IMG/VR virus record: IMGVR_UViG_3300009149_000037 | Location: 1 to 58,560 of that record | Strand: one strand, 5' to 3' | Length of the DNA: 58,560 nucleotides | Origin: a virus | Taxonomy: Duplodnaviria > Caudoviricetes | Shown here: piece by piece, positions 2,876 to 56,163 of the stretch | How the letters are laid out: the number at the start of each line of letters is the position of its first letter | Numbering within the stretch: the stretch's first letter is position 1 | The notes under the pieces: model-generated | Seen by the model: only the letters and a program-made list of their open reading frames with translations | What the model was told of the DNA's origin: nothing | Database searches by the model: none | Program-made: the position numbers and the translations under genes

Positions 2876-2898
2876 CTTTTCCTCAGGGAGAAATAGCA

Positions 2899-3282
2899 AT
2901 GGCGAATGAAGCTCAACTTCATATCAGTCTTCGAATCAATAATCCTACTTCCAAATTCGAAGCTCAAAGTACAAATACTTCTTACACAGTAGACGTTGCA
3001 GGTTCTAGTGGACCAGTTCCGGGAATGGTAGTAGCAACAACCGCTGGACTCGACGTTGCTTTTACTGGATTGACTGTTCCTACATGGTGCGTTCTCAAAA
3101 ATCTGGATTCAACGAACTTTGTTGAGTACGGAATCTGGGATGGAGCAACTTTTCATGAATTGGGAGAACTGCCGCCTCTCAGTAAGCCTCAAATCATCAA
3201 GCTTTCAAGAAACATGACTGGCTTTCGTCTCAAAGCTGACACTGCTTCGTGCGACGTTTCTGTTGAGGCATACGAATTGTAA
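2899..3282 (+). CDS. Putative virion structural protein
   Basis: Good RBS (AGGGAG), beta-rich 127 aa, tail-module position. Confidence 0.5.
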   Translation: MANEAQLHISLRINNPTSKFEAQSTNTSYTVDVAGSSGPVPGMVVATTAGLDVAFTGLTVPTWCVLKNLDSTNFVEYGIWDGATFHELGELPPLSKPQIIKLSRNMTGFRLKADTASCDVSVEAYEL

Positions 3283-3307
3283 ATTTTCACTTAAGACTGG
3301 AGCAATT

Positions 3308-3484
3308 ATGAACAAGAACGTCGATGGACTCGTCTTTTACCAATCAAAAGAATTTCAAGCTTTGTGTAAACGGTTTGGAATAGACTGGGAAAAGAGAACA
3401 ACTAAGTTACAAATCACTATTGACATTAACTCAATTGTTACTGTTATTCAAAATTACAATGCGGAAAACATTGTTGAACCCTAA
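3308..3484 (+). CDS. Hypothetical protein
   Basis: GACTGGAGC RBS then ATG at 3308. Confidence 0.55.
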   Translation: MNKNVDGLVFYQSKEFQALCKRFGIDWEKRTTKLQITIDINSIVTVIQNYNAENIVEP

Positions 3485-3515
3485 CACTTAAAATCCTCTA
3501 AGACTGGAGCGTCTG

Positions 3516-3959
3516 ATGAGTGAACTGGCTGCCGAGAATAATCCACCATGCCATCTAGTAACGATTGAGCAGGTGTATTATCAAATGCCTTATGAAGAAC
3601 CTGAAGGGATTGATTCCCGAAGCTCTCACATGGTTTTTTCGGAAGAGGAACCCTTTATCAAAAGGAAAACTCTTTCAAATAATTGGGAGAAGCTTCCAAC
3701 AGGTTCCATTCAAGGTCAAGGCACTGTTGTTATTCAAAACGAAGTGCAACATCCTTCTCAAATACCAACTCCAGAGCAGAAATTGGAGCTTGAAAACCGC
3801 ATTATTGAAGTCTCTTGGGGCATCGAAATAGATAATCAGATTGCTTTGATAATTAGACCAGGTCATACGTGCCGATTTGAAGCTTTTGATCTTTCTGAAA
3901 TCTATTTACGCTCAAAAAATGCTCCATTGAGTTGCCGAATTTATGTTTTTCCTTCCTGA
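3516..3959 (+). CDS. Hypothetical protein (possible structural)
   Basis: GACTGGAGC RBS; 147 aa ORF in the tail operon. Confidence 0.55.
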   Translation: MSELAAENNPPCHLVTIEQVYYQMPYEEPEGIDSRSSHMVFSEEEPFIKRKTLSNNWEKLPTGSIQGQGTVVIQNEVQHPSQIPTPEQKLELENRIIEVSWGIEIDNQIALIIRPGHTCRFEAFDLSEIYLRSKNAPLSCRIYVFPS

Positions 3960-3971
3960 TTGGGCTTTGTC

Positions 3972-6207: not shown

Positions 6208-9060
6208 TTGACTAGAGCCAATGTGCCAAAGGTTATTGAATTTCGACCATTCTACATTGGGAATAAAGCAGGCTCACGTTCTGAGTTTGTCTTTGAGCCT
6301 AAACTGAAAGAATGGATTGGACCAGATTCAAGCCTCATTAGACAAAATGGCTGGCATCTTTCTCAAGGTGATTCAGCGATTCCTTGCGAGCATACAGGCA
6401 CGGGAGCAAAGTGCGGCGAATGGGATTTTCCAGAACTATTACTTCCACCCGAAGATATCGTTAAAGGTAAACGCAAAACAGCAAGAAACCGCTCAAGACA
6501 ATCTACAACTAAACGAACCAAAGCCAGAGTTCACTCAAGAAAAGTTATTGTTCCGGGAGTAGGTTCCTGCATGGTGGAACTTATTTCAAACTTCTTTTCT
6601 ATCAAAGATTCCAGCGGCTGCAACTGTAAAGCCTACGCTTCCAAAATGGATAAATGGGGGCCAGAAGGTTGCGAACTTCATCGAGAAGAAATCATCAATC
6701 ATCTAGCCAAGAATACAGAAATTCTTCGGAAGGGAATTCAAGACCTCAACATTCCTGGTTGCGGCTTACTTTCAAAACTCGCCGGCACTTCCGCTGCAAT
6801 TCCTCTTCTCAAGATTGGAGCGAATTGGTTACTCACTAAAGCAATCTCCAGTCACAAATCGAAGAAAGAAGCAGCGACAAAGGTTGGTCCCAAAGATGCG
6901 ATCAAATGGATTGAACCAAATCCTTTGAACCTGACTCGGAATCTTGCAATTCATGTCTTCCCGGTCATTGGCAAATGGGAATGGCTCATTGAAGCTCTTA
7001 AAGACAAGACTCATCTTTTCAATGGTCGTAAGCTTGTCTCAATCGTCACTTCTAAAGGCGATTCTGTACGCTTCAAAAACCGAACGATCAGACTTCAAAA
7101 TCCTGAAACAGTCGCTGCTCAATTTCGAGAACTTGGCTTTGAGGTTTCTCTCAGGGAAAACTCGGTGAGGACGGGTGAGTTTGTTTCGTTTGCTCCAATG
7201 GTCAAAGAGCTTTACTCAACTGACCCTTCCCAAGTCACTTTGTACTTACACAGCAAAGGTTCAAAGCATCCAGACAATGAATTTCGATCTATTACAAAAT
7301 GGAATGAAACGATGTTGTCTGTCTTGCTTGATATTGAATCGGTCACAGCGAGTTTCAGCAGAGGCAATGATTTAGTTGGAGCGTTGGGTGGAGATGTTTT
7401 TGGTGATGGCAATGTTCCAATGGGGTCATTCTACTGGTTTAGAAATTCGACTGGTGAAGCAACAGTCACTCCTCACAAGAATCCTTTCTTCACTTCAGAG
7501 AGTTGGCCATCCAAGATATTCAATCAAGAGTATCTCTTAGGTGCAGTCGATGGAAGCAGACCATTCAAGCAACTCTATACAGCAAACTTCTGGGATAATG
7601 GTGAAGGTTCTGACAGACTCAAGAGATTCAATTCTCAAAGAGTCCATAGTATCGAAGAACCAAAAATCACTTTGATTACTCCAACAGGCGATCGACCAGA
7701 AGCTTTCAGACTCTGCGAGAAATGGATATCTCAACAAACTCTAAAACCTTTTGAGTGGATCGTCATTGACGATGGCGAAGTTCCTACTCAAATCACTCAA
7801 GGTCAAAACTACATCAGGCGACAAGGTAGAAAGAGTTCAGAACATACTCTTCCAGACCAGATGCTTGAAGCTCTCAAGTATGTGACTGGAGATTTTGTAA
7901 TCATGATCGAAGACGATGACTACTATCATCCAGAGTATCTTCAATTGATGGTTCAACAATTACAAACAGCGGAGCTTGTCGGAGAAGTTGGCGCTCGATA
8001 CTACTACCTTCCAACTGCAACTTTCAGACACTACACAGAACACACTCATAGCAGTTTCTGCCGAACAGGTTTCAGAAAGAATGTCATCCCACTGCTTTCA
8101 GAAATCTGTAAGGCTTCAAACGAGTCTTTGGATATCAATCTTTGGGAACAATGGACTGGAACCAAACAGCAGCAGTGGAAATCTACGACGATTGGTTGCA
8201 TTGGTATCAAAGGAATGCCTGGTCGAAAATCCCATAATAAGATCAGACCAGAAATTGATGATCACAATCTCAAGACGCTGAAGCAATGGTGTCCCGATTG
8301 GAATGACTACTTACCCTTCTTGAAACCTATCAAAAATCGAGTGGAAGAGACGGGAACACTCTTCAGTATTCTTCTCAGGGAGTATGACCGATTCAGGCCA
8401 GTCTCTGCTGACTCAAGATTTGATCGTCAACTATTAACTGATTCCAAAGAAGTCAAAGTTCAAGGATGGAATATCAATCCAGTCAAACACACTCCAAGTG
8501 ATCCTAAGCAATCAAGACATTTGAAGATTCTTGCTACTCAATCTTTTCCAGATGCTGATTGGATTCTTTATCATGATGCTCAACTTCAATTGAAGTGTAG
8601 TCCCTCATTCTGGTTTGATTGGGTACGTTCTCAAGGTGAAGCAGACATTTACTTTTATCATCATCATCAAAGGCATTGTGTCTACAAAGAAGCTAAAGAG
8701 GTGATGAAGATTCGAAAAGATAAGCCTCAAAATGTTCAACCTCAAATTGCTCGATACGCAAGCCAGAAGATTCCTGAAAACCTTGGATTGTATCTCGGTG
8801 GATTACACATTCGACGAAATACAGAAGCTGTAAAAGCCTTCGAAGAAATCTGGTGGCGTGAAGTTAAACGCGGTTCAGTCAGAGACCAGATTTCTTTGCC
8901 CGTCGCTCTTAGAGAAAGTGGCGTCAAGTTTTTAGCTTTACCGCCAATGTCATGGACTCAACATTTTCAAAGATATACTCACCTCACGAATACTCCAGTC
9001 ATTGAAAATATGTCGGCGAATGATATTCGTGTCTGGGAAAACTTTAAGAAAACGAAGTAA
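6208..9060 (+). CDS. Multidomain glycosyltransferase (Cys-motif N-region + GT-A-like + GT2 + DUF616-like)
   Basis: GT2 motifs 'ITLITPTGDRPE..EWIVIDDG..MIEDDDYY'; upstream GT-like 'YLHSKG'; C-terminal DUF616-like 'HHQRHCVYKEA..RDQISLP'; N-terminal 'CNC..MDKWGPEGC'. Confidence 0.8.
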   Translation: MTRANVPKVIEFRPFYIGNKAGSRSEFVFEPKLKEWIGPDSSLIRQNGWHLSQGDSAIPCEHTGTGAKCGEWDFPELLLPPEDIVKGKRKTARNRSRQSTTKRTKARVHSRKVIVPGVGSCMVELISNFFSIKDSSGCNCKAYASKMDKWGPEGCELHREEIINHLAKNTEILRKGIQDLNIPGCGLLSKLAGTSAAIPLLKIGANWLLTKAISSHKSKKEAATKVGPKDAIKWIEPNPLNLTRNLAIHVFPVIGKWEWLIEALKDKTHLFNGRKLVSIVTSKGDSVRFKNRTIRLQNPETVAAQFRELGFEVSLRENSVRTGEFVSFAPMVKELYSTDPSQVTLYLHSKGSKHPDNEFRSITKWNETMLSVLLDIESVTASFSRGNDLVGALGGDVFGDGNVPMGSFYWFRNSTGEATVTPHKNPFFTSESWPSKIFNQEYLLGAVDGSRPFKQLYTANFWDNGEGSDRLKRFNSQRVHSIEEPKITLITPTGDRPEAFRLCEKWISQQTLKPFEWIVIDDGEVPTQITQGQNYIRRQGRKSSEHTLPDQMLEALKYVTGDFVIMIEDDDYYHPEYLQLMVQQLQTAELVGEVGARYYYLPTATFRHYTEHTHSSFCRTGFRKNVIPLLSEICKASNESLDINLWEQWTGTKQQQWKSTTIGCIGIKGMPGRKSHNKIRPEIDDHNLKTLKQWCPDWNDYLPFLKPIKNRVEETGTLFSILLREYDRFRPVSADSRFDRQLLTDSKEVKVQGWNINPVKHTPSDPKQSRHLKILATQSFPDADWILYHDAQLQLKCSPSFWFDWVRSQGEADIYFYHHHQRHCVYKEAKEVMKIRKDKPQNVQPQIARYASQKIPENLGLYLGGLHIRRNTEAVKAFEEIWWREVKRGSVRDQISLPVALRESGVKFLALPPMSWTQHFQRYTHLTNTPVIENMSANDIRVWENFKKTK

Positions 9061-9083: not shown

Positions 9084-9761
9084 ATGTCTGCAATGCAATG
9101 GTCTTATGGAATTACAACAGTTCCTTCAAGACTACACACAACGTTTCCAAGAACTCTTAAATCACTTGCTAACACAGGATTTGACAAACCTCACTTGTTT
9201 GTTGATGGATGTTCAGATTCAGATAAGTATCTGAATTGCTCCAGCCATGGAATCACACTTCATCATCCAGCTCTCAGAACCGTTGGTAATTGGGTTGCAG
9301 CACTCTGGGAACTCTATTGCAAGAACCCAGACGCCCATCGGTATGCAATCTTTCAAGACGATTTAGTGACCTGTCTTTCTCTCAGGGAATACTTGGAAAA
9401 GTGCCCCTACATCACTAACACTTATCTCAATCTGTTTACTGCTCTAGCAAATCAATCAAGTCATGAAGGCTGGTACTTCTCAAATCAAAAAGGTCTGGGA
9501 GCAGTCGCACTCGTCTTTGATAATCAAACAGCAATTAAACTTCTGAAGAGTCCAAAGCTGATTGATAAACCTAAAAGCTCAAAAGGTCACAAAGCAATTG
9601 ATGGAGCAATCATTGATGCTCTCAAAGATTCTGGTGTCAAAGAATTAGTTCACAATCCTTCTCTTGTACAACACACAGGAGAAGTCACTTCAATCGTTGG
9701 TAACAAGCAACATCCAATTTCCTCATCATTCCCTGGAGAAGATTATGACCTTCTCAAATGA
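9084..9761 (+). CDS. GT-A fold glycosyltransferase
   Basis: 'GITTVPSR', DxD-like 'IFQDD', C-terminal 'PSLVQHTG'. Confidence 0.75.
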   Translation: MSAMQWSYGITTVPSRLHTTFPRTLKSLANTGFDKPHLFVDGCSDSDKYLNCSSHGITLHHPALRTVGNWVAALWELYCKNPDAHRYAIFQDDLVTCLSLREYLEKCPYITNTYLNLFTALANQSSHEGWYFSNQKGLGAVALVFDNQTAIKLLKSPKLIDKPKSSKGHKAIDGAIIDALKDSGVKELVHNPSLVQHTGEVTSIVGNKQHPISSSFPGEDYDLLK

Positions 9762-11042: not shown

Positions 11043-11291
11043 ATGGTTCTAGCAGTCTTCTTTGCTGGATTGATTGTAGCTCTCTTAGGAGCAATGTGTG
11101 AGAACGCATACCACGCTGGAGATATCAAAGCCACTGGCTTACTCTCTTTGGTCCAGTGTATTTCTCAGGGATTAATTGCGTGGGTCGTTATTGCGGATAA
11201 GTCATTACCCTACTTGATTGCTTCTGCGATGGCCTGGTCAATTGGTTCAATGGTTGGTTGCTACTGGAAAAAATTAAACCATGAAACCTGA
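11043..11291 (+). CDS. Small membrane protein (about 3 TM)
   Basis: Three hydrophobic segments. Confidence 0.55.
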   Translation: MVLAVFFAGLIVALLGAMCENAYHAGDIKATGLLSLVQCISQGLIAWVVIADKSLPYLIASAMAWSIGSMVGCYWKKLNHET

Positions 11292-12952: not shown

Positions 12953-13828
12953 ATGAGAATCTACTACATAGGCAAATTCAAAGAAGAACACAACACAGAA
13001 AACTACGTCACCGCTGCCTTCGAAGAATTAGGCCACAAAGTCTATCAATACAAACACAACAAAAAGGAAACTCTTGCTCAAATCTTCAATCGAATTCAAG
13101 AGTTTGGAGCAGACACAGTTCTCTTCAGTAAAGCAGAATTTCCAGAAGCAAAAAAGTTGATTGATCTTTGCTATGCGAAAGGAATTCTGACTGTCTGCTG
13201 GCAATTCGATTTATTCATTGGATATCGCTCAAAACTCCCAGAACAATTCTGGTCTGATTTTCTCTTTACAACAGATGGTGGACACCAAAGAGAGTTTATC
13301 AAGCTTCGATGCAATCATCGTTTGCTGCGTCAAGGAATTCATAAACCAGAAGCCATCAAGATAGACTCTACAGAATACAAATACGATGTAGCGTTCGTTG
13401 GTAGTTGCACTCACGTAAGTCATGAATCAAGACGGAACCTTTTGAAGTTCCTTCAACAAAGAAAAAGCTTCATTCATTATCAGACCATGAGAGGCTTGAA
13501 ACTGAATGAAGCTTTAAATCAAGTCAAAATCGTCGTCGGTGATTCTTATCCTTCACCAAATTACTGGAGCAATCGAATCTATGAAATCACTGGCCGAGGT
13601 GGATTCTTTCTACACCCATTCACAGAAGGCTTAGACTCAGAGTTTGAAGATGGCGAACACTACGTTGGTTATCAGCGAGGCAACTACAAACAACTCTGTG
13701 ATCGCATTGATCTTCTTCTCAGGGAAGATTCGGCGAGGGAAAGAATCCGCCAAGCTGGGTTTGAGAAGACTCGCAATTGCTACACCTACACTCACAGAGT
13801 TCAAGAATTGCTTTCAATAATTTCTTGA
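12953..13828 (+). CDS. GT-B glycosyltransferase (CgeB/Glyco_trans_1_2-like)
   Basis: 'YDVAFVGS', 'YWSNRIYEITGRGGF', 'YTYTHRVQELL'. Confidence 0.85.
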   Translation: MRIYYIGKFKEEHNTENYVTAAFEELGHKVYQYKHNKKETLAQIFNRIQEFGADTVLFSKAEFPEAKKLIDLCYAKGILTVCWQFDLFIGYRSKLPEQFWSDFLFTTDGGHQREFIKLRCNHRLLRQGIHKPEAIKIDSTEYKYDVAFVGSCTHVSHESRRNLLKFLQQRKSFIHYQTMRGLKLNEALNQVKIVVGDSYPSPNYWSNRIYEITGRGGFFLHPFTEGLDSEFEDGEHYVGYQRGNYKQLCDRIDLLLREDSARERIRQAGFEKTRNCYTYTHRVQELLSIIS

Positions 13829-17209: not shown

Positions 17210-19389
17210 CTAACCGTGAAGCATGAGAAGGTAAATCGTCTCTGAGAACCCACCACAACGAAACACGTAACCACCCTTCACTCGATTAGCAGTGTGGTGA
17301 CAATCCAAACGACCTACCGACGTGTATTGCTGAGTTCCGTATAAACGAATTTGAATCACTGTTTTGGATTCTTGTCGAAGTTCTTGCAGAGTTTTCATTT
17401 TCGAATCTTTCTTGAGGCTGCGAGCAGAATGAAGCAGCCAATAACGAGGTAAGGAGTTGCGGCGAGAATCTGTTCAGTCATCGGAAGCCTCCATCAGGAT
17501 TAGTTTTTCGAGCATTGCGTTGAGAACTTTAAGGTCTTCAACGTGACGGGTTTCGGTGAGCCGTTTTTGAACGATGGCGATTCGAGTTTCAATTTGCTGC
17601 CTAGTCATATTGAAGTTTCCTTAATACTCGATAGTTGGAAGAGTTATAAGGCAGGGGCAAATCATAACCGATTAACAACACTTCATTTTTCTCTTCGGAG
17701 TAATAGAAGACGTTTGGAGTTGTCTCTAACGGATTACCCTCACTGTCTAACGTGAAGAACCAATAATACCCGCTGGTAGAAATTTGCCTGGCCATTATTG
17801 AGTTTCTCCTCTATAAGCTTTCAGAAGGTCAGTCAGTTTGTCACAAATGGTTTCCGCTTGAGGCCTACCAATCTTCAAGAATTCTGCAACAGCATTGACT
17901 GAGATACCCTCTTCGGTATCTGCATTGAGTTTTCTAGAGACAATTGCATCGACGATTTTATCAATGCAAATATCAATCGCTGTTCCGTGTTGGCGTTTCA
18001 TTAACTTCTACCTTGTTGGTGAATGGAAAAGCGTACTCATGGAAAGAAACAGAAACTACGTTGTTGGTCCTAGACAACGAATCGAAAAGACCTTTAGCGA
18101 TTACAGCTAAGTCATCAGGATTGTGAATACACTCACAATCCACATCAGTTTTGATTTTACCATTAGAGGAACGGGTGACGATAACTCGGATGAAAGTTTG
18201 TAGCATTTTAATCCTCAAGGCAAAGGTGAGAGTAGTGATCGAGACTTCCGCAATGGCTGCAACGAGCAGCGTTGGTATCTCGATTGATCTGAATGTGCTC
18301 CAGTCTCAAGGGCAGGTAACCGCAAGGTCCATAAGAGGCGAGAACCTCACAAGCGACTTCCGCCGTCTCATAGAGATTATCGTCGAGAGGTTCAACCAGC
18401 GTATCGCAGCAGACTGGACAGATCGGAATAAAGGTTTCATCGACCACAAAAATCTTAGAGCAGAGACGGCATTTGCAGGTATCAGCCATGACTAGATTCC
18501 CTGAAGAAAAAGGTAAGAAATCGAAATGGTGGATCAAATTACTTCAATGACATCACAAGCTCTGACTCTTCGACGAACTTCAATGCCATCCCCAGGTCCA
18601 GAAGGTCCAGTTGCTCCAACATACCAGACGATTCCATCTTCGAAGAGAAATCCACCATCCCAGACTCCGTCAGCCCAATCATCAGTTCCATCTGTGCTAT
18701 CAAATTCCGATTGAGTTAAATGAGGTGTGGCACGAGCATAAGTGTCATAAAAATTGTCTCCAAGCTTCTCGACAGCAAGAGACACATCCCAGTCGCATGC
18801 TTCCAACCATTGACCGAAAGTGAATTTGCCTTCAGCGATCAAAGAGAATCGTTCAGTGCGAGCAGCTGGAAAAGGTTGAATGCGAATCGTCATCGTTTCA
18901 GCTCCAGAACTTGAGGGAAGGAACCCGCCGGAGCGGGCCAAGAGAAAAACCAAAAAAGCTACCAAACCCGTTCACCACATTTGGTCAGGCAGATCGCATT
19001 TGCAACTGCCTCAGCTTCTGACTTGAACGGACAATCCATCCCATCAATATCTCCACCTTCCCAGTAGATGAAGAAAACTGATTTCCCAGAACCATTCCAG
19101 CCCTGTTTGATTTCGAATGTCTCTTTTTTGACTTTGAGGGTTGAAAAAATCATCGTTTCAGCTCCAGATTTGAGGGAAGAAACCCGCCGAAGCGGGCTGA
19201 GAGGATTTCGGGATGTTACGACATCTCTTGAACGAATCGCAGTGACCAATTTCCGCTGAACAGCGACATCATGAACAGACGAAACTTTGAATCAGCCTGC
19301 TCCTGAGTTTCCGCTTCGATGACTTTCGAATCATCAAAAGACTTGTTCAGAACCTTCGAAAACGTCGTGTAGTGAAAATTAAAACGCAT
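17210..19389 (-). CDS. Array of about 10 small early hypothetical genes (17210-17398, 17395-17481, 17474-17608, 17601-17795, 17795-18001, 17973-18218, 18208-18489, 18534-18893, 18959-19153, 19216-19389)
   Basis: Tightly packed or overlapping minus-strand ORFs with repeated initiation regions; 18208-18489 is CxxC-rich. Confidence 0.55.
18891..19198 (-). repeat. Duplicated ~47-bp hairpin+RBS leader (18891-18937 and 19151-19197)
   Basis: CATCGTTTCAGCTCCAGA..TTGAGGGAAG.AACCCGCCG.AGCGGGC occurs twice; CCCGC-TTCG/TCCG-GCGGG hairpin on the minus strand. Confidence 0.85.
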
Positions 19390-19538: not shown

Positions 19539-20903
19539 TCAGACAGATTTCAGATGCTCCAAAGAAACCTCAATAACCGTTCCGGCACCCGCATAGCCGT
19601 TCCCGACTGAGACTTTCGCCCTTTTGGGGTAGAGTTCTTTGATGGTTCCCTTCCATCGTGAGGCTTCGTCGTCAGTCTCTTGGACCCAAACTTCATCGCC
19701 CTCTAAATGCTTGCCTTTTCGCTTCGTAGGCTTCTCTTCGAGGGTTTTATCGTCGTCTTCTGGCTCATCTTCCTCTTCGGGTTTCTCTGGCTTGCCAAGG
19801 TCAATACCGCCAACTGTCGGACACTCAATCAGAGTCTGATAACCGTCTTCGTTGATCTTGTATTCCAACTTGAGTTTTTCTCTGGTCACTGTCTTCCCTG
19901 AAGAAAATAGATTCCAAGCTTTGATCAGCAGAGCCACTGTATCCTCAGTTGTGATTCTTTCGTCGTCATCGACTTCTGCCATCATTTCAAAAAGGTGTTG
20001 GAGTTTATTCGAACGAGCAGCGATCAAAACGAAGAATTCTTGAGCGAGTTCTTCCATGCTCCAATCAAGAACAGATTCACTTCTGACATCATCATCAGAA
20101 TAGTATTCATGGAAAATGGATTTGGAAGATGCCATTAAGTAAAGCAGAGCAGCACACTTGCCAGGAACCAGCCATTTCGTGATATTGCCATCAGTGTCCT
20201 CTTCAAAAATAAAGCCTACGCAATCAATCAATTTCAGATGTCGTTCAACGAAGCCGATTGATTCGCTGTGAGTTCGTTTTGCAGCGTTGAAGGGATCAAA
20301 ACAAGCTCCAGTTCTTTCCCAGAGATTTCTGATACAGAAGTCTGCGATTCGGGCAACTCGTTTTTTCTGAGTTCCGTTGAGCTTCATGGATTGGAAATAA
20401 GCTGAACGATACATCACGTCAGTCAGGCTCCGTGGTTTGCAGGTATCCATCGTGTTCACCGTCTCGTCGCCTTCATCGACTCCATACACAATCAACTTCT
20501 CGATGAAAGGTTCTTCAGACCAGAACTGACCCTCGGGCCATTCAGCGTATTCCTCTGCTGCGAGAATCAAACCAATCAGAGTGTGTTGACCATTGAGTAC
20601 CAATCCCGTTTTACCAATAATGATTGGCTCGCCGTTGAACATCCACCGATAACGAAGAATTTCTTGCTTCAGCGAATCGTAATTGCTCTTGGAAATTGGC
20701 CGATTCGTGATGTTGTTAGCGAGGAATACTTTCCTTGATCCAACTTTGAAATTGTGAATTTCCAAAGGCGTCTCATCTGTTGCTTCAGTCCATCCCAGAA
20801 GTTCTTTGGCTTCGTCCGCTGAGATGTAATCTCCTGGAGAAGAATAAGCGATTTCAGCAAACAGAACTTCACGGGCAGCAGCAGTCGTTTTCTTGGTAGC
20901 CAT
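19539..20903 (-). CDS. ParB/Srx-like (DGQHR-related) N-terminal domain protein with acidic linker and SH3-like C-terminus
   Basis: 'NNITNRPIS..WMFNGEPIII..LNGQHTL'. Confidence 0.65.
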   Translation of the reverse strand: MATKKTTAAAREVLFAEIAYSSPGDYISADEAKELLGWTEATDETPLEIHNFKVGSRKVFLANNITNRPISKSNYDSLKQEILRYRWMFNGEPIIIGKTGLVLNGQHTLIGLILAAEEYAEWPEGQFWSEEPFIEKLIVYGVDEGDETVNTMDTCKPRSLTDVMYRSAYFQSMKLNGTQKKRVARIADFCIRNLWERTGACFDPFNAAKRTHSESIGFVERHLKLIDCVGFIFEEDTDGNITKWLVPGKCAALLYLMASSKSIFHEYYSDDDVRSESVLDWSMEELAQEFFVLIAARSNKLQHLFEMMAEVDDDERITTEDTVALLIKAWNLFSSGKTVTREKLKLEYKINEDGYQTLIECPTVGGIDLGKPEKPEEEDEPEDDDKTLEEKPTKRKGKHLEGDEVWVQETDDEASRWKGTIKELYPKRAKVSVGNGYAGAGTVIEVSLEHLKSV

Positions 20904-22761: not shown

Positions 22762-22822
22762 TTTGCTTGCTCTTTTTCTTCAGGGAATTGCGAGGAAGGC
22801 TGCCGAGAAATCGAGCAGCGTT

Positions 22823-24028: not shown

Positions 24029-24513
24029 CATACTTCATTGGAATTGATCCAGGAAAATCAGGCGGTCTGGTTGCTCTTTCTTCTTCAGGGAAGATTGAGG
24101 AAGCCTCAGTGATGCCTTCAACTGAAACAGATATCGCAAATTGGTTTGGCGGTTACTCAAATCTTATCAACGGTCACAATTACGCTCTAATTGAAAAAGT
24201 TCATGCGATGCCAGGACAAGGTGTGACGAGCATGTTTACTTTTGGACGTAATTTTGGTTTTTTGAGGGCTTGTCTTTGCTGCAATGAAATACCTTTTAAT
24301 GAAATTCAACCAAGAGAATGGCAGAAAGCTTTTGGAATTCCTTCTAAGAAGAAAACTGAAAACAAGAGACAATTCAAAATCAGACTGCTAGAAAAAGCTC
24401 AACAACTGTTTCCAAGTTTTCCGCTTTGGAAAGAACCAAGGGCATTGGGTAGGCAACTTTCAATCTGTGATGCTTTGTTAATTGCAGAATTCTGTAGGAG
24501 GATTTATGGATGA
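24025..24513 (+). CDS. ruvC: RuvC-like Holliday junction resolvase
   Basis: 'IGIDPGKSGG', 'ALIEKV', 'FTFGRNFG', 'QPREWQK', 'DALLIA'. Confidence 0.88.
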   Translation: MTYFIGIDPGKSGGLVALSSSGKIEEASVMPSTETDIANWFGGYSNLINGHNYALIEKVHAMPGQGVTSMFTFGRNFGFLRACLCCNEIPFNEIQPREWQKAFGIPSKKKTENKRQFKIRLLEKAQQLFPSFPLWKEPRALGRQLSICDALLIAEFCRRIYG

Positions 24514-30475: not shown

Positions 30476-30706
30476 ATGAATAGAAAACAGGCTGTTTGTT
30501 TGTTCTGTATATTGTGGGTTGTAATCCCTCTTTTGATTATTGAAATTTCCGCAGCTTCAAAAATGATTGAGAGATACTATGTAACCTCTGTAGGAATAGA
30601 GGATTGGTGTTTACTGATTTTAGCAATGACATTTTTTGTTTTCTTGAATGTCTGCTTGATTGGCACTTCCATCGCCCTTTACTTAACTTTTTCTTCAGGG
30701 AAATAA
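30476..30706 (+). CDS. Small membrane protein (2 TM)
   Basis: Two hydrophobic helices. Confidence 0.55.
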   Translation: MNRKQAVCLFCILWVVIPLLIIEISAASKMIERYYVTSVGIEDWCLLILAMTFFVFLNVCLIGTSIALYLTFSSGK

Positions 30707-37418: not shown

Positions 37419-37431
37419 AAAGAAGTTAAAA

Positions 37432-39430: not shown

Positions 39431-39459
39431 TTCAAGTCTCCAGTCTAAGAACAATGGAA

Positions 39460-39527: not shown

Positions 39528-39528
39528 T

Positions 39529-39702: not shown

Positions 39703-39761
39703 TTTAGTGCTCCAGTTTTCGTTTCGGGTTTCGGTTATAATTCGTCTCTCCAACAAAAGCA

Positions 39762-43071: not shown

Positions 43072-43670
43072 ATGGGTACTCCAAAACATCCAATACAACC
43101 ACTTGTGCAAGATGAATATGGAACTCAGAGATTTCAAGATAATAAAATCGTGAGATATTTGTTGGACAACGGACCATTTGACCTGAATGATTTAGCAGGG
43201 TTACCTTTTTGCCGTGAAGACCGAGAACAATTTGCCCAATTGATAGGCTATAGTCTTTCAGGTTTTGGGGAATTAAGTTATGTCAGTCGCGACACATATG
43301 ATATTGCAGAAAAAATGTTAACAATTACTGATGAAAAGGTAGCAGAATTAACCGTATTGAGGGAAAAGCTAAACGAGATAAGAAACCTCATTAGGCAATT
43401 AACAACAACGGCGTTTCAAATTCATCCAGACGATTTAAGAGACTAACAAAATTCTTTTCTTCAAGGATTTCATCAATGCAACGTAAACCATTAGCCCTGC
43501 CTCAAGGCGGTTGTTGGTATTGTGGAGAAGATCAAACAGATACTTTCAGTGGAGAGTTTGATACAAATCTGCATCTTGAATGTTTAGAAAAACACCTCAA
43601 AGAATATCCAGATGACCCTGAAGCAAAGATCATGTATCGAGAACTTGAGCACCTTTTTCTTCAGGGATAA
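43072..43670 (+). CDS. Two hypothetical proteins (43072-43446, 43476-43670)
   Basis: ORFs with RBS, located between primase and ATPase. Confidence 0.6.
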
Positions 43671-43672
43671 TA

Positions 43673-47135: not shown

Positions 47136-47466
47136 ACTGCCCAAATTGACTCTTGACGTTCTATTGAAGTTTGCAGAAGAACATTCAAAAGACAAATTTG
47201 ATATTAACCATAGTAAAACCTGACTGGCCGTTCAATGTGCTGCCCAGTTAGGGTACACCGACCCAGGTATGGGTGGATATTCTACACTCCAATACCAAGA
47301 TGGGTTTAACGATTGGAAAGAGCGTTCCATTGATGAAGTCTACGCCAAATGGTGTGAAGATACAGTCAAATTGAGAGGAACTAACAAATCACAAGTCTGG
47401 ATGACTGGAGCAAAAATAGTTACTTCAATCAAGGAATACGTTAAGGATCACAATCATGAAGGTTGA
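47119..47466 (+). pseudogene. Hypothetical gene interrupted by in-frame TGA (47221-47223)
   Basis: GAAGGAGA RBS, MSLKSKLPK..HSKT*LAVQCAAQLG.., continuing in frame into the 47269-47466 ORF. Confidence 0.5.
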
Positions 47467-47995
47467 AAAAGAGAACAAATTCCTTTTCAAAGAAACTCTG
47501 GCACTACTCAAACCAGAATCAACGATCGTAGAACTTGGAACAATTCGAGACAGCAATCCCAAAGCAGAATTCACAGATGGCTGGAGCACTCTTCAATGGT
47601 ATCTTGCAGGACACGAAGTACATTCAATTGACACAGACTTTAGAGCACTCAAAATATGTGAGTTGACATTGAGACTTGAGACAACTCCTCGAACAAAACT
47701 CCCAGTGTTTCCTTATTTGGTTCACTGCAATGCTTTAGCTTTTCTCAGGGAAATGTGGCCTAAGTTAGACGCTCCAATTGATCTTCTCTACATTGATGCT
47801 CCAATAGGTCAGGAAGCTGCTGATTGTTTCATGCTCGCTGATAAATGGATTCAAGAAGGTGGCTTAGTTCTCGTAGATGATATTGAAGAGAACCACACTC
47901 AAAGAAAAGAGTTGTTACTGCCTGCAATCCTTGAAGCTGGATACGTTGAACTACATAACAATGGCAGACAATCACTACTTCAAAAACAAGGCTGA
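47456..47995 (+). CDS. Class I SAM-dependent methyltransferase (Methyltransf_24-like)
   Basis: 'IVELGT', 'HSIDTD', 'IDLLYIDA', 'GGLVLVDD'. Confidence 0.85.
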   Translation: MKVEKENKFLFKETLALLKPESTIVELGTIRDSNPKAEFTDGWSTLQWYLAGHEVHSIDTDFRALKICELTLRLETTPRTKLPVFPYLVHCNALAFLREMWPKLDAPIDLLYIDAPIGQEAADCFMLADKWIQEGGLVLVDDIEENHTQRKELLLPAILEAGYVELHNNGRQSLLQKQG

Positions 47996-47998: not shown

Positions 47999-48625
47999 AT
48001 GAAACTATTTGATAGAGAAGTTGCTCGACAGACTCTGATTGATGTGTATCCAATCTTGAGTCCCTACTTTGCTTTGGCTCATGGAACAGTCTTAGGAGCT
48101 TACAGAGACAAAGATTTCACTCCAACAGAAGTAGATATTGATTTGCTAACAACGGTCGAAGTGATGGCAGAAAATGCTGAACTACTTCTTATAGCTTTGG
48201 AGCGTGAAGGATTTGTCAGTAGGGTAATTGAGAAACCCAATGGGGCTATCAGAGCGTTTTCAGTAAAGAGAAACGGTATCAAGATTGATTGTGCCGGATA
48301 CACGAAACATATTTTGAAGAGCAGCCAGGAATACAACACGTCTCTACACTCACTGATCAATTCTCGACCTAGATGTCTTTCGGCTTATAGAGAAGTAGGC
48401 TACTCAACTTCAACGCTTAAGGATTTTTCGATCGTTCATCCTTATTCCTTTTTCCTCAGGGAGAATATGGAGACGATTGATTTTCAGGGATTACCTTGGA
48501 AGATTCCTTCCCCAATTGAAGAGTATCTTGAAAGGGAGTATGGATCAGAATGGGAGACACCAATTCGTACTCACATGCAACAATCACGTATCTATCACTT
48601 TGAAACTCTGGAAGGAATATCATGA
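47999..48625 (+). CDS. licD: LicD/fukutin-family phosphoryl-ligand transferase
   Basis: 'HGTVLGAYRDKDFTPTEVDID', 'IPSPIEEYLEREYGSEWETP'. Confidence 0.82.
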   Translation: MKLFDREVARQTLIDVYPILSPYFALAHGTVLGAYRDKDFTPTEVDIDLLTTVEVMAENAELLLIALEREGFVSRVIEKPNGAIRAFSVKRNGIKIDCAGYTKHILKSSQEYNTSLHSLINSRPRCLSAYREVGYSTSTLKDFSIVHPYSFFLRENMETIDFQGLPWKIPSPIEEYLEREYGSEWETPIRTHMQQSRIYHFETLEGIS

Positions 48626-50589: not shown

Positions 50590-52167
50590 ATGGCTAAGAA
50601 GAAATCAGCAGTTCCAAAGAAGGTGAAGAATACAAGTCTGGAATTGACGGTCAAAGAAGCTACTCAAAAAGTTGAGATGGCTATCAATCAGTTGATGTCC
50701 AGAAGTAAGTACCTCAACAAAAATCTCGATGACCGACGATCAATCAATGACGATTGTGGTTATCCTGATAATCCAGATATTGATTCGCATTTCCTGCCTC
50801 TCTATGAGCGTGAAGGAGTCGCACGAAGAACAGTCAATATCTATCCCGATGAATGTTGGAAGTCTATCCCTTCAGTTTTTGAGACAGACGATACAGACGA
50901 AGAGACTGAATTTGAAAAAGCTTTCGGAGAACTTGGCAAATCTCTAATGGGAGAAGAGGATCACTACAATCCTGAAGACAGTGGACATCCATTGTGGGAG
51001 TATCTTCATCGCCTTGATATTGTTTCTGGAATTGGAAGATATGGCGTTCTGCTTCTAGGCTTTGATGACTCTGAAGATTTCAGCAAAGAGGTTCAACCTA
51101 GAAACGGAAAAATCAAGCTGGTTTATGTGAGAGTCTTTCACGAAGCGAATGCTCAAATCACAAAGCTTGATGAGAACAAAAACAGTTCAAGATACGGACA
51201 ACCAGTTGAGTATAGTCTCTCAACAACGAACGTCTCTTCAGTCACAGACAGCGAGACTTCTGTTGATGCAATGAAGGTTCATTGGACAAGAGTTATCCAT
51301 GTCGCTGATACGCTTGTCACAAATGAGTTGTATGGAACTCCAAGGCTCAAATCGAATCTCAACAGGCAACTCGACCTTAGAAAACTCTATGGTGGTTCAG
51401 CCGAAATGTATTGGCGAGGAGCTTTCCCCGGTCTTGCTCTTCAGACAAATCCTAATATGGACCCAGACTACGTCATTGATAGAACTGCTCTCAAAGACAA
51501 CATGGAGAACTTCTTCAATTCGCTCCAAAGGTATTCACTGCTTGAAGGTCTTGAAGCAAATATGCTTGCTCCAACGGTCGTTGATCCTTCTCCTCAAGTA
51601 GCAGTTCAAATTGACGCTATCTGTATTGATATTCAATGCCCACGAAGAATCTTTACAGGCTCTGAACGTGGTGAATTAGCTTCTTCTCAGGATAGCGAAG
51701 CGTGGGAAGGTCGATTGAAATCTCGGAGAACAGAATACATCACTCCAAAGATTATTGTGAAGGTCATCAATCGGCTTATTAAAGTTGGTATTCTTCCAGT
51801 TCCACCAGAAGGATTCAAAGTAGCCTGGGAAGAAACACAGCAACTCTCAGAAGAACTTCAGGCTAAAATTGCAGAGATTAAAACCAAAGCCATCGCTGCT
51901 TATCTTCAGGGAGACGGCAGCAACCTGATTGCTCCTGAAGATTTCTTGACTCGCATTCTTGGATTTACAGGCGAGGAAACTCAAGAGATTCTCGATGCCA
52001 CTGAAAAGTATCTGATTGATAATCCTATTGAAGAGGAGTTCGATGATGGACTCGACGAATTCGGAAACCCCCAACAGTTTCCTGAAGAAAATATCAAGCC
52101 ACCAAAGCAACCATCAAGCAATCCCTTTCCAACAACAACCAAGCCAAAACCAACAGTCTCCAAATGA
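50590..52167 (+). CDS. Portal protein (DUF1073-type)
   Basis: Follows TerL; 'YEREGVARRTVNIYPDECW', 'VHWTRVIH', 'GGSAEMYW', 'PRRIFTG'. Confidence 0.88.
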   Translation: MAKKKSAVPKKVKNTSLELTVKEATQKVEMAINQLMSRSKYLNKNLDDRRSINDDCGYPDNPDIDSHFLPLYEREGVARRTVNIYPDECWKSIPSVFETDDTDEETEFEKAFGELGKSLMGEEDHYNPEDSGHPLWEYLHRLDIVSGIGRYGVLLLGFDDSEDFSKEVQPRNGKIKLVYVRVFHEANAQITKLDENKNSSRYGQPVEYSLSTTNVSSVTDSETSVDAMKVHWTRVIHVADTLVTNELYGTPRLKSNLNRQLDLRKLYGGSAEMYWRGAFPGLALQTNPNMDPDYVIDRTALKDNMENFFNSLQRYSLLEGLEANMLAPTVVDPSPQVAVQIDAICIDIQCPRRIFTGSERGELASSQDSEAWEGRLKSRRTEYITPKIIVKVINRLIKVGILPVPPEGFKVAWEETQQLSEELQAKIAEIKTKAIAAYLQGDGSNLIAPEDFLTRILGFTGEETQEILDATEKYLIDNPIEEEFDDGLDEFGNPQQFPEENIKPPKQPSSNPFPTTTKPKPTVSK

Positions 52168-54301: not shown

Positions 54302-54326
54302 CCTCAAAATCAATTCTGGACGAATA

Positions 54327-54524
54327 ATGAAATACCCTAAAGATCATCCTGTTTGGACTATTGCAAGGCATAGTGTCTATCTTGGATTTGCAACTTTGAT
54401 TCTCTACACAAATGCAAGCAATTTTGACCATACAGAAATAAAGACAATTCTTGAAATGGGTTTGGTGTTCATTGGAGCTGATTATGCCAAATCCAAATTA
54501 TCAAAGTCTAAGGAGAAAGACTAG
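54327..54524 (+). CDS. Small 2-TM membrane protein (holin candidate)
   Basis: Two hydrophobic segments and a basic C-terminus. Confidence 0.4.
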   Translation: MKYPKDHPVWTIARHSVYLGFATLILYTNASNFDHTEIKTILEMGLVFIGADYAKSKLSKSKEKD

Positions 54525-54526
54525 AG

Positions 54527-54790
54527 ATGGCTAAACGACATAAAGGCGGCAGAGAATTCACGGACACTGAAGAAAGGATTCTTGCTCTATTGCAAGATGG
54601 AAAGCCTCATACAAGAAAAGAAGTCAGATGCTCAATTGGAGACGAACATACTTCTTTGAAGAGTGTCTCATTCCATCTGTCTAACATTCGAAAAGTGTTG
54701 AATCCCAAAGGCCACGACATCATTTGTGAGTTTCGACACAAGAATATCAGCTATCGTTGGGTGAGATTATTGCCATCAGCTTGTGAATAG
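54527..54790 (+). CDS. Winged-helix DNA-binding protein
   Basis: 'FTDTEERILALLQDGKPHTRKE..VSFHLSNIRKVL'. Confidence 0.7.
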   Translation: MAKRHKGGREFTDTEERILALLQDGKPHTRKEVRCSIGDEHTSLKSVSFHLSNIRKVLNPKGHDIICEFRHKNISYRWVRLLPSACE

Positions 54791-54894
54791 CTTAGTTGTA
54801 CTATCTTTCGAAGGCTTGCAGTTTACGGATTGCTTTGAACAGACTTAGTATTCCTCAGTGAATACAAATTTCGTCTGTTCTCCGTAGGCTCTCT

Positions 54895-56163
54895 ATGACT
54901 ATTGAAAATCTAGTAGTCAATCTTTCTGGCAAAGTGCGAAGAGTGAAGAGCAAAGGGATTCAATACCTTGTTGCTCCTGTTCGCATGATTGTGCCTGGCG
55001 TACTCAATGGTTCATTGGGTCCGCTGCTTTATCCGCCTGAAGAAATCAAAGCCACTTTCCGTAAATGGAATGGTGTACCTCTCACGAACAATCATCCTTC
55101 TGGCTCAGCTATGGAAGCTGGTCACCTCATTATGGGTGAAGTTCGAAATGCTGGTACGGATGGAGCAGACCTCATTGGAGAAGCCTGGTTCAACGTAGAG
55201 AAAACGAAAAAAGTCAACAACGATATTTATGCTGCATTAACTCAAGGCCAGAAGATTGAATTGAGTACAGGCTTAGGAGTTGACAAAGAAGAAGCTCCTG
55301 CTGATTCCGTTTTCAATGGCGAAGTCTATACACATATTGCTCGAAACTTTAAGCCAGACCACCTTGCAATTCTCATCGACTCAATTGGAGCTTGCTCCGT
55401 GAAAGCCGGTTGTGGAGTATTCAATGAAGAATCAAAGGTTGATTCTGAAGCAGAAGAAACTCTTGTCCCTGTAAGTAATTCAGAAGAAGAGGAAGACTCA
55501 ATGAAGTTGAAACCAGAGGAACGAACAGCAATCGTCAACGGTCTGATTGCTAACAATTGCGGCTGTTGGACACAAGATGATACTGAAGTTCTGAATGGTT
55601 TCTCCGATGAGAAGCTGACCAGCCTTCAGGAATCATCTGTCAAGAATTCAGAGATGAAAGAAACTCTGAATGCTGCAACGAAAGAATTCAAAACTGAAGA
55701 TGGTACCACTCTTACTTTCAATGTTGAGAATAAGAAGTGGATTTCTAAGACTCCTGAAAAGGAGGTTGATAAGGAGGGTTCTGTGGTGAACAAGCATGGT
55801 CAAGGTATGGGTGATGAGCCTCAAACGACCGATCAATGGCTGGCGTCTGCTCCGCCTGAAGTTCGGGAGGCTGTCTCTAACTCAATGCAGATTCAGAACG
55901 AAGCAAAGGAAGCTCTTGTTCGTCGTCTCATCGCAAATGTTGCAGACGCTGACAAGCACGCTAAGGGTGAATCTCTTATGAAGAGGTCACTCGCCGAACT
56001 TCGTGAAATCGAAGCTCTCTTGCCTGCTCCTGCGGCACAGAACTCTTCTTCAGGGATTAACTGGGGGGCAGCTTCTGGTGGCTCTGACCGAACTGTCATG
56101 AATGAATTTGGCAGCGATGAATTCATTCCAGAAACCTCTTTGAGCTTTTCGAACGGCAAGTGA
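54895..56163 (+). CDS. Prohead protease/scaffold (DUF2213-like)
   Basis: 'VPLTNNHP', 'ELSTG', 'PDHLAIL..GACSV..GCG', followed by a helical scaffold region. Confidence 0.85.
   Translation: MTIENLVVNLSGKVRRVKSKGIQYLVAPVRMIVPGVLNGSLGPLLYPPEEIKATFRKWNGVPLTNNHPSGSAMEAGHLIMGEVRNAGTDGADLIGEAWFNVEKTKKVNNDIYAALTQGQKIELSTGLGVDKEEAPADSVFNGEVYTHIARNFKPDHLAILIDSIGACSVKAGCGVFNEESKVDSEAEETLVPVSNSEEEEDSMKLKPEERTAIVNGLIANNCGCWTQDDTEVLNGFSDEKLTSLQESSVKNSEMKETLNAATKEFKTEDGTTLTFNVENKKWISKTPEKEVDKEGSVVNKHGQGMGDEPQTTDQWLASAPPEVREAVSNSMQIQNEAKEALVRRLIANVADADKHAKGESLMKRSLAELREIEALLPAPAAQNSSSGINWGAASGGSDRTVMNEFGSDEFIPETSLSFSNGK

Follow-up and report, generated by a model that had tools for sequence, protein, structure and literature searches.

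A sense-oriented, ribosome-binding-site-like 13-mer dispersed through a csrA-carrying phage genome, and its candidate readers

The 58.6-kb phage stretch analyzed here (58,560 nucleotides; the window) is a virus contig recovered from subsurface metagenome sequence. The phage carries a thymidine-hypermodification gene set plus its own CsrA. The word TCAGGGA, usually preceded by pyrimidines, recurs throughout the window, and the first-pass annotation had taken these copies as a possible CsrA regulon. This raises the question of whether the repeated word is a real signal and what would read it. The 13-base signal is real; its candidate readers are CsrA, some other reader of RNA and an enzyme that nicks DNA.

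TCAGGGA occurs 26 times in the window, 21 times on the plus strand and 5 times on the minus strand. A T-rich pyrimidine tract (YYY prefix) precedes 19 of these copies, which were treated as the members of the motif (Table 1). Their consensus is TTTTYY-TCAGGGA-D-D-A. At unconstrained positions the motif takes the longer form MC-TTTTT-C-Y-TCAGGGA-R, and the longest consensus was found in the intergenic copies. The seven tract-less copies, at 16929, 44072, 10196 and 53885 and, on the minus strand, at 14504, 28048 and 29045, look like background. Their number equals the chance expectation; the whole excess is tract bearing, and the tract is obligatory. Every copy listed in the first-pass annotation was present, but its list had missed 10196, 11165 and 53885 on the plus strand and 14504, 28048 and 29045 on the minus strand. 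Two members of its set of about 19, those at 16929 and 44072, lack the tract; the others bear it.

The enrichment was robust to the null model. Dinucleotide shuffles of both strands (n = 100) gave a mean of 9.58 copies and a maximum of 18, and none reached 26. An order-3 Markov model predicted 4.15 copies on the plus strand, where 21 were observed; the earlier estimate of two to three per strand was thus somewhat low, but the conclusion of enrichment holds. Codon-preserving shuffling had been named beforehand as a check that could refute the enrichment, which survived it: the called ORFs contain 19 sense copies of TCAGGGA against 3.99 ± 1.85 expected from synonymous-codon shuffles, none of 500 reaching 19. 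In the same shuffles the 12-mer YYYYYTCAGGGA was expected 0.45 times in called ORFs and was observed 13 times (0/500). Codon-order shuffles did not reach the observed counts either (0/500). Antisense TCAGGGA was at background in the called ORFs (2 versus 4.37 expected). The trinucleotide GGA is depleted in the genes (z = -5.3), indicating that Shine-Dalgarno-like words are generally avoided there and that the excess of TCAGGGA is not an effect of composition. The core is sharp, with tract-bearing one-letter variants at background and none exceeding three copies. C and T interchange at motif positions -1 and -2, and substitutions in the T tract are mostly C, which may point to pyrimidine-class reading of a single strand or to G-U-tolerant pairing.

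All 19 tract-bearing copies (17 plus, 2 minus) are in the sense orientation relative to the local genes, and both minus-strand copies fall within the minus-strand gene block. The polarity is therefore strict, and the motif flips with transcription direction as had been proposed. Sixteen copies lie within ORFs and three are intergenic. The intra-ORF copies occupy the three reading frames 6:6:4; together with the excess over synonymous shuffles, this frame independence indicates selection at the nucleotide level. The peptides that permit the motif are [LF]-R-E, S-S-G and [LF]-Q-G. In contrast, the most-repeated 9-mers of six portal-family relatives were mostly frame-locked (for example, 6/7 in one frame in L139, 6/6 in L136 and 5/6 in L137). 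Copies occur about once per 3 kb across all operons (early-like, replication, packaging, head and tail), with a spacing compatible with random placement (CV of 0.69 versus 0.93; P = 0.076). The motif-free 9.7 kb between 33,954 and 43,655, which include the low-GC modification genes, were considered as a special region and proved to be an ordinary gap (P = 0.6). Contigs of one DNA run, compared as assembled contigs rather than reads, were continuous across the motif sites, with one nearby C>T change at 51915.

Table 1. Tract-bearing motif copies and the csrA gene in the window
Feature	Coordinates	TCAGGGA at	Strand	Context
Motif copy	2877..2889	2883	+	Intergenic; GGGAG as Shine-Dalgarno 9 nt before ATG 2899
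Motif copy	7145..7157	7151	+	Within ORF 6208-9060, frame 1
Motif copy	8369..8381	8375	+	Within ORF 6208-9060, frame 1
Motif copy	9376..9388	9382	+	Within ORF 9084-9761, frame 1 (by arithmetic from ORF start)
Motif copy	11159..11171	11165	+	Within ORF 11043-11291, frame 2
Motif copy	13713..13725	13719	+	Within ORF 12953-13828, frame 1
Motif copy	18498..18510	18498-18504	-	Intergenic; 8 nt before ATG 18489 of minus-strand ORF
Motif copy	19895..19907	19895-19901	-	Within minus-strand ORF 19539-20903, frame 0
Motif copy	22774..22786	22780	+	Most likely intergenic; 13 nt past stop of HNH gene 22411-22761; upstream of TACGTTATAAT, a promoter-like box
Motif copy	24079..24091	24085	+	Within RuvC-like resolvase ORF 24025-24513, frame 0
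Motif copy	26932..26944	26938	+	Within exonuclease ORF 26497-27609, frame 0
csrA, 60 aa	29105..29287		+	Own RBS TTCAAGGAG, differs from motif
Motif copy	30689..30701	30695	+	At 3' end of ORF 30476-30706 (frame 0); HNH gene 30787-31422 starts 86 nt downstream
Motif copy	33942..33954	33948	+	Within DNA polymerase ORF 32073-34082, frame 0
Motif copy	43655..43667	43661	+	3' end of ORF 43476-43670, frame 2; Shine-Dalgarno 5 nt before ATG 43673
Motif copy	47739..47751	47745	+	Within ORF 47456-47995, frame 1
Motif copy	48450..48462	48456	+	Within ORF 47999-48625, frame 1
Motif copy, weaker tract	48478..48490	48484	+	Within ORF 47999-48625, frame 2; 28 nt after preceding copy
Motif copy, weaker tract	51900..51912	51906	+	Portal ORF 50590-52167, frame 2; over family-conserved Y-[VL]-Q-G
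Motif copy	56044..56056	56050	+	Within ORF 54895-56163, frame 0

The motif resembles the ribosome-binding sites (RBSs) of the phage, which consist of a U-rich tract followed by AAGGA(G/A), for example, at 30476 and 43476; ORF 56742 is preceded by CCTTTTTGGGAG. At three starts the motif is itself the RBS, 5 to 9 nt before the ATG. The overlaps at 2899 and 43673 had been pointed out earlier and were borne out, and the minus-strand start at 18489 is an additional one. A start codon lies 4 to 9 nt downstream of 11 of the 19 copies, compared with 5.8 expected (P = 0.014, post hoc), an excess that is weak once the three real gene starts are left out. Reading the motif as a sigma-70 promoter was rejected, since there is no conserved second element and the distances to the next start are scattered. 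AATAAT promoter flags follow two copies (30678-30707 and 43645-43674).

The best reading, which we hold tentatively, takes the motif for an RBS-like element that a sequence-specific reader recognizes on the transcript. The element would be a nonpalindromic cis-acting signal of 13 to 17 nt, (A/C)C-TTTTT-C-Y-TCAGGGA-R, kept by nucleotide-level selection wherever the protein sequence permits. It is built like an RBS, with a U-rich tract and then a Shine-Dalgarno-like AGGGA(G/A), and in three places doubles as the working RBS of a gene. Candidates for the reader that would dock on it in phage transcripts are RNA-binding proteins, small RNAs that act by base pairing, and the 30S subunit with S1; the phage CsrA would be one such protein but is not favored. 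The effect on phage mRNA would likely be genome-wide, for example marking, translation control or a shield against decay, and not gene-specific control. We infer reading as RNA rather than as DNA, as well as the identity of the reader and the effect of its binding. Reading as RNA is supported by the sense polarity of all 19 copies, including those of the minus-strand block, by the RBS-like build, by the three real starts, and by frame independence. A search of the phage for a complementary RNA partner returned nothing beyond the complement of the motif itself. Bacterial RNA-binding proteins do not usually recognize a linear core this sharp, with variants at background; DNA enzymes more typically do. 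The sense polarity could also be a historical by-product of an ancestor whose genes and motif sites all shared one strand and in which the block of 7.8 kb was later inverted. The dispersed strand-specific intragenic phage motifs documented in the cited reports are nick sites, not RNA elements (PMC3517423; PMC11780129).

A site-specific nick motif is the leading alternative, possible though unlikely. A phage nickase would cut one strand at each copy, leaving localized single-strand interruptions in virion DNA. The HNH endonucleases encoded at 22411-22761 and 30787-31422 are candidate nickases; PDB sequence searches with these two proteins gave nothing informative. A motif copy lies less than 100 nt from one end of each HNH gene (P = 0.004, post hoc). 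Since RNA polymerase is hindered by nicks in the template strand, the sites would be retained on the non-template strand. As far as the cited descriptions go, the nick motifs of T5, phiKMV-like and tf/LUZ24-like phages are likewise sharp, short, asymmetric words, enriched manyfold at about one per 3 kb, spread through coding sequence and strongly strand biased, mostly to the coding strand in the tf group (PMC3517423; PMC11780129). In the 46 kb of phage tf, TACTRTGMC occurs 14 times, always on the same strand, and one-letter variants are few (PMC3517423); all 13 WACTRTGAC copies of phage Rembedalsseter are nicked (PMC11780129). The motif studied here is comparable: its 19 copies are spread over 58.6 kb, 16 of them within ORFs, its core is sharp with variants at background, and its spacing, including the largest gap, is compatible with random placement. 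However, its sequence is unrelated, and its RBS-like build has no counterpart among the nick motifs. The described cases all have sites on one strand whatever the gene direction, in tf despite two convergent transcription units (PMC3517423), whereas 2 of the 19 sites here are on the other strand, inverted exactly with the gene block. The nicks of phiKMV-like phages are described on the non-coding strand (PMC3517423), indicating that confinement to the non-template strand is not a general rule. Nicking also leaves the RBS-like build and the use at three starts unexplained.

Binding of phage or host CsrA to UCAGGGA on phage mRNAs, as a regulon or a mark, is improbable judging from the sequence features. 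The csrA gene reported at 29105 was confirmed: its product matches phrog_9500 (E = 4e-19), its best PDB matches are CsrA chains, and it is canonical, with the conserved L2, L4, R6/R7, GIxAPK and R44 present. The CsrA/RsmA site pattern is (A/U)CANGGA, and the core of all 19 copies fits it, as had been claimed. The motif thus shares with CsrA/RsmA sites the core, a Shine-Dalgarno-like word and overlap with three RBSs, in a genome that has csrA. A second GGA at +12 to +16 occurs in 6 of 19 copies versus 1.85 expected (P = 0.0075, post hoc); over +10 to +45 there was no excess (12 versus 9.9). The CsrA regulon proposal is supported only in part: a single 7-mer is enriched, no hairpin presents its GGA, 3 of the 19 copies are at RBSs, 16 are intra-ORF, and most are single. 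Among the eight WCANGGA words, TCAGGGA alone is enriched (z = 7.8), compared with z scores of 1.5 for TCAAGGA and 2.2 for TCATGGA. ACAGGGA, the SELEX-type CsrA word, is absent versus 2.8 expected, and the ANGGA class, like GGA, is depleted in genes (z = -2.1). Neither N nor the first base is degenerate in the motif, a sharpness far beyond known CsrA specificity, and from an ordinary-looking CsrA such strictness is not expected. To our knowledge, a U-rich tract is not part of any known CsrA site; here it is obligatory and tends to pair with GGGA, not to expose it. The proposed GGA-presenting hairpin was not found: the mean probability of unpaired GGGA was 0.36 versus 0.35 in flank-shuffled controls, the mean MFE around the motif was -12.7 versus -11.9, the mini-stem between tract and GGGARR varied inconsistently from 0 to 6 bp, and no conserved RNA structure was found around the copies. 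True TCAAGGA(G)-type RBSs, including that of csrA itself, would be better classical CsrA targets.

A related and quite improbable idea is that the element is an RNA "self-mark", an RBS-like address of 13 to 17 nt in every phage operon, placed within genes in all frames, through which the phage's CsrA or another phage RNA-binding factor would protect or preferentially translate phage messages during host shutdown. If true, a CsrA-type regulator would be acting across the whole virus instead of controlling a few leaders.

A polar DNA site acting on transcription is improbable as well. It could be stoperator-like, an asymmetric site at which a monomeric DNA-binding protein stops elongating RNA polymerase in one orientation, or ops/RfaH-like, a non-template-strand loading or pause site for an elongation factor. 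The 19 asymmetric 13-mers are all co-oriented with transcription, and the cited account of stoperators in Cluster A mycobacteriophages (L5 gp71-type) describes more than 20 asymmetric 13-mers genome-wide whose orientation is strikingly correlated with transcription direction (PMC9283540). Those sites, however, are described in promoters and short intergenic spaces (PMC9283540), whereas only 3 of the 19 copies here are intergenic and 16 are intra-ORF. Stoperators also belong to temperate phages with a dedicated repressor. A scan of 72 phage ORFs, many of them without a family, revealed neither an integrase nor an immunity repressor nor a NusG/RfaH-like protein; there is a lone small HTH_17 protein at 16961-17197. 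The thymidine-hypermodification genes would also suggest a virulent phage.

It is very improbable that the phage accumulates the 7-mer core as a Chi-like sequence controlling the host RecBCD/AddAB, or as a signal for priming or translocation. The statistical hallmarks of Chi are a short, sharp, enriched, frame-independent and dense word, and the core, about 5-fold enriched, shares them. But all above-background copies need the 5' pyrimidine tract, which Chi does not, and the polarity follows gene direction: under rolling-circle or end-entry logic every copy should be on one strand, with no flip in the minus-strand block, and one bidirectional origin in the divergent region would not lead one to expect a switch at 13.9 kb.

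That the motif is functionless and arose through codon usage, a bias in dipeptides or a recurrent peptide is most unlikely: dispersed 9-mers with at least five copies, typically five to eight, are common (31/47 portal-family loci and 22/34 unrelated IMG/VR loci of at least 12 kb), but neither kind of codon shuffle reached the counts, the motif occurs in three frames and stays at background in antisense, and the intergenic copies carry the longest consensus.

No near relative was recovered from cultured phages or IMG/VR. A megablast of 25 kb against cultured phages gave no match, the portal protein was at most 32% identical to those of cultured phages, and a search of IMG/VR with the single portal protein gave no match. 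A portal alignment search of IMG/VR recovered 80 loci (37 to 48% identity; 1.04 Mb in total), none of which was enriched; TCAGGGA occurred 105 times on the plus and 45 times on the minus strand, and in tract-bearing form 16 and 6 times. The best protein relatives, at 57% identity, are on contigs of 58,246 and 19,203 bases. A 15-mer scan of IMG/VR returned 117 stretches, of which the best 80 each had a single match. One locus, L070, had 28 core copies, which are collagen-like repeats. The idea that each relative has its own motif was dropped because repeated 9-mers were as common in unrelated controls and mostly frame-locked. Searching IMG/VR for CsrA gave one weak locus, a word-indexed protein search with the phage CsrA returned only CsrA itself, and its atlas neighbors were mixed (Pseudomonadota, viruses and Bacillota). 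A literature search for the TCAGGGA word yielded only primers and unrelated matches, and one on motifs in the same orientation as transcription nothing apt.

Dispersed orientation-specific words are rare in phage genomes, and the known classes, nick sites and stoperators, are unexplained or confined to one phage group. The present case combines strict sense polarity, mostly intragenic copies in all frames, and an RBS-like build. If read as RNA, the motif would represent a genome-wide post-transcriptional signal of a new type. As a nick motif, it would add a new marine/subsurface siphovirus lineage to the phages with nicked genomes and would be the first case of nick polarity following transcription, which would bear on the 50-year-old question of the purpose of phage nicks.

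The motif exceeds both chance and codon usage. Its core, TCAGGGA, occurs 26 times in the window, 21 times on the plus strand and 5 times on the minus strand. Dinucleotide shuffles gave 9.58 ± 3.15 copies over the two strands and never more than 18, and an order-3 Markov model predicted 4.15 copies on the plus strand. No other 7-mer in the genome that has more than a few copies is as over-represented. When codons were shuffled synonymously within each ORF (500 shuffles, with proteins and codon usage preserved), 3.99 ± 1.85 sense 7-mers were obtained, compared with 19 observed, and 0.45 ± 0.61 copies of YYYYYTCAGGGA, compared with 13 observed. Permutation of codon order gave 3.15 and 0.11, respectively, and none of the 500 shuffles of either kind reached the observed counts. 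Antisense core copies (2, compared with 4.4 expected) were at or below expectation. The first-pass annotation, which had reported a tract-preceded TCAGGGA repeated on the sense strand, is thus confirmed, its enrichment having survived codon-preserving shuffling, and is extended here.

The pyrimidine prefix is present in 19 core copies. The seven copies lacking it (10196, 16929, 44072 and 53885 on the plus strand; 14504, 28048 and 29045 on the minus strand) equal the chance expectation, indicating that the whole excess of the core is tract bearing. In the aligned motif copies, positions −6 to −1 read T, T, T, T, Y, Y, all seven core positions are invariant, and positions +7 to +9 avoid C, with A at +9 in 13 of 19 copies. 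The copies least bound by coding (2883, 18504, 22780, 30695, 43661 and 48456) share a longer consensus, MC-TTTTT-C-Y-TCAGGGA-R. One-letter core variants with a pyrimidine prefix have 0 to 3 sense copies each, compared with 17 + 2 for the motif; the exception is TCAGGAA, which occurs 5 times on the other strand. TCAGGGA is the sole member of the eight WCANGGA words to be enriched relative to synonymous shuffles (z = 7.8). No ACAGGGA occurs (2.8 copies expected), and the GGA and ANGGA classes are depleted within genes (z = −5.3 and −2.1, respectively).

The 16 copies within ORFs are distributed 6:6:4 over the three frames (that of copy 9382 was computed by hand from the ORF start) and encode S-S-G, [LF]-R-E or [LF]-Q-G. 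As a control, the top-repeat 9-mers of six portal-family relatives were largely confined to one frame (6 of 7 in L139, 6 of 6 in L136 and 5 of 6 in L137, all IMG/VR loci); such frame locking is the signature of codon or dipeptide bias. The copy in the portal gene overlies the family-conserved Y-[VL]-Q-G, which suggests that motif copies arise wherever the protein sequence permits. A protein motif, a tandem repeat and a mobile insertion were each ruled out as the identity of the motif.

All 19 tract-bearing copies have the sense orientation of the genes around them. Genes run on the plus strand except for a minus-strand block at about 13.9 to 21.7 kb; the only minus-strand copies (18498-18510 and 19895-19907) are both within this block, which contains none of the 17 plus-strand copies. 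The long motif is expected about equally often in either orientation (sense, 0.45; antisense, 0.40), so composition fails to explain the polarity. Ancestral one-strand genes and sites, followed by inversion of the 7.8-kb block, would, however, yield the same polarity without a link to transcription. Spacing fits random placement, perhaps slightly more even (coefficient of variation, 0.69 compared with 0.93; P = 0.076), and a 9.7-kb motif-free stretch across the low-GC modification genes is ordinary (P = 0.6).

Three copies are intergenic (2883, 18504 and 22780), and another two (30695 and 43661) overlap the preceding gene's stop codon. A real ATG lies 9, 5 and 8 nt downstream of copies 2883, 43661 and 18504, respectively, and at these three positions the motif, judged by its placement, is evidently a ribosome-binding site (RBS). 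Over all copies, a start codon 4 to 9 nt downstream was found in 11 of 19, compared with 5.8 expected (P = 0.014; post hoc and weak), and a second GGA at +12 to +16 in 6 of 19, compared with 1.85 expected (P = 0.0075; likewise post hoc and weak). As RBSs, the early and middle genes of the phage otherwise have a U-rich tract with AAGGA(G/A), and its tail and late genes have (A)CTGGAGC or (GA)CTGGAGC; CCTTTTTGGGAG lies upstream of ORF 56742. The motif therefore has the build of the phage's own RBSs. An excess of TGCTCCA/TGGAGCA (20 per strand) is due to the (GA)CTGGAGC class. Several minus-strand genes have a near-identical start region, CTGGAGAAACGAAATGAAGAC (16616-16636, 21716-21736 and 39423-39443).

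A sigma-70-type promoter was ruled out as the identity of the motif, which has no second conserved block. Generic sigma-70-like matches were below those in shuffles (15 compared with 26.9, 31 with 35.9 and 15 with 29.3). Three TACGTTATAAT boxes, each after a T-rich stretch (22822-22854, 25653-25685 and 39716-39748), are likely promoters without a −35 box. No partner RNA complementary to the motif is encoded in the phage, and the Rfam matches in the window were limited to one tRNA and one type II hammerhead ribozyme, both away from motif copies. The ribozyme (39456-39528, minus strand; 42.7 bits, gathering threshold 37) sits between two small minus-strand ORFs in an otherwise plus-strand region. 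The tRNA (30282-30354, plus strand; 50.4 bits), for which ARAGORN gave no anticodon name, follows a terminator-like hairpin (approximately 30237-30278). Just 5' of the Sak4-like gene lies a weak tRNA-like element (27950-28038, plus strand; 20.7 bits, below threshold) that has a long extra arm and that ARAGORN called tRNA-Gln.

Judged from its genes, the phage is siphovirus-like. The window is the whole of a 58,560-base record, a virus contig without an exact terminal repeat. Family searches identified a tape-measure protein, portal, large and small terminases and head-morphogenesis proteins, together with a family-A DNA polymerase, helicase, exonuclease, Sak4-like annealing protein, RuvC-like resolvase, UDG-superfamily protein and two HNH endonucleases. 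Genes of a thymidine-hypermodification set, whose members also include two large unknown enzymes (phrog_3271, phrog_33138), an FkbM-type methyltransferase and DUF3310, span 34064-38586 and 39850-42233; the GC content of the 34- to 38-kb part is 35%, compared with about 41% elsewhere, and a terminator-like hairpin 3' of this part (38968-39001) is stronger than any other in the genome.

Genes and ribosome-binding sites located in the window
Feature	Position	Remark
5-hmdU DNA kinase helical and kinase domains	34064-35501	helical domain E = 9e-43
Neighbouring modification enzymes	up to 38586	
Thymidylate-synthase-like protein	39850-41001	
MazG-like protein	41283-42233	
HNH endonuclease genes	22411-22761 and 30787-31422	both free-standing
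RBS-class examples	1687, 3297, 3504, 9072, 11977, 28061	

No near relatives were found among cultured phages or in IMG/VR, where the top portal identity was 48%; the closest portal proteins, 57% identical, come from marine and other assemblies. The sole sequencing run containing the phage, as contigs, is a subsurface metagenome. That run also contains second, diverged versions (80 to 95% alike) of 56400-58100, around a capsid-like gene (56742-57896); elsewhere in the compared 18.5 kb there is almost no variation, which places the microdiversity mainly in one structural gene. GCGC is nearly absent from the window (3 compared with 50.6 expected; ratio, 0.06), the ratios of GTAC and GATC are about 0.56, and ten 6-mer palindromes, including AGATCT and ATCGAT, are absent, with 9 to 18 copies of each expected. 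This scarcity looks like restriction-site avoidance. The core also recurs in L017, an IMG/VR contig of 9,510 bases that is an unrelated temperate-phage fragment with an integrase, an amidase endolysin and a tail fibre; it has 13 TCAGGGA in 9.5 kb, 7 and 6 on the two strands (reversed-word control, 1 and 1), and tblastx gave zero matches between it and the window.

Two documented kinds of signal have much of this pattern in common with the motif: the nick-associated motifs of phages and stoperators. A nick motif on the non-template strand is a rather doubtful reading. In density, sharpness and intragenic spread, the motif matches the known nick-associated motifs. Excerpts of PMC3517423 describe 14 TACTRTGMC in the 46 kb of phage tf, on the top strand only despite two convergent transcription units and with few one-letter variants. 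According to excerpts of PMC11780129, WACTRTGAC is carried by Rembedalsseter and 60 related phages, 88% within coding sequences and mostly on the coding strand. The sites of the present phage differ in that they invert together with a gene block. Each HNH gene has one end within 100 nt of a motif copy (post hoc simulation, P = 0.004), and the products of the two genes would be candidate nickases if this reading is right.

Binding by CsrA, proposed in the first-pass annotation, is unlikely. The phage's own csrA gene at 29105 is real, and the core fits the site pattern of the CsrA/RsmE literature. The proposed presentation of GGA in a hairpin loop did not hold. In 62-nt windows, the mean minimum free energy was −12.7 kcal/mol, compared with −11.9 in flank-shuffled controls, and the probability of being unpaired was 0.36 compared with 0.35 for GGGA and 0.38 compared with 0.41 for the tract. 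Pairing of the tract with GGGARR to close a UCAG loop is possible, but it yields a contiguous stem of just 0 to 6 bp, which is broken in copies with C at −3. With such a stem and unpaired probabilities at control level, no hairpin is conserved. Further points against CsrA are the restriction to a single strict word, the upstream tract that every copy needs, the mostly intragenic copies and the ordinary look of the phage protein. Its classical targets here would rather be the TCAAGGA(G) RBSs, including those of csrA itself and the preceding gene. Directly 3' of csrA lies a gene (29333-30223) for a protein of 296 aa that has long, acidic repeats rich in E/D; no FliW-like CsrA partner was seen adjoining csrA.

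A polar DNA site for transcription control is similarly improbable. Stoperators, as excerpts of PMC9283540 describe them, are more than 20 asymmetric 13-mers whose orientation follows transcription, a likeness to this motif, but they occupy promoters and the short gaps between genes and depend on a dedicated repressor. Of the 19 copies of this motif, 16 are intragenic, and no integrase or repressor families were found among the 72 phage ORFs scanned. A Chi-like or other DNA signal is very unlikely; Chi shares the core statistics but, unlike this motif, does not need a flank. That the motif is functionless is scarcely credible against the shuffled controls. The remaining probability belongs to something outside these readings.

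In weighing the two levels, the sharpness of the core and the base rate of explanations already known speak for DNA, and the strict sense polarity, the pyrimidine-class degeneracy, the RBS-like build and the real use as RBS speak for the transcript. On these sequence features, we tentatively favour a signal at the transcript level, which some sequence-specific reader, the CsrA case included, may recognize.
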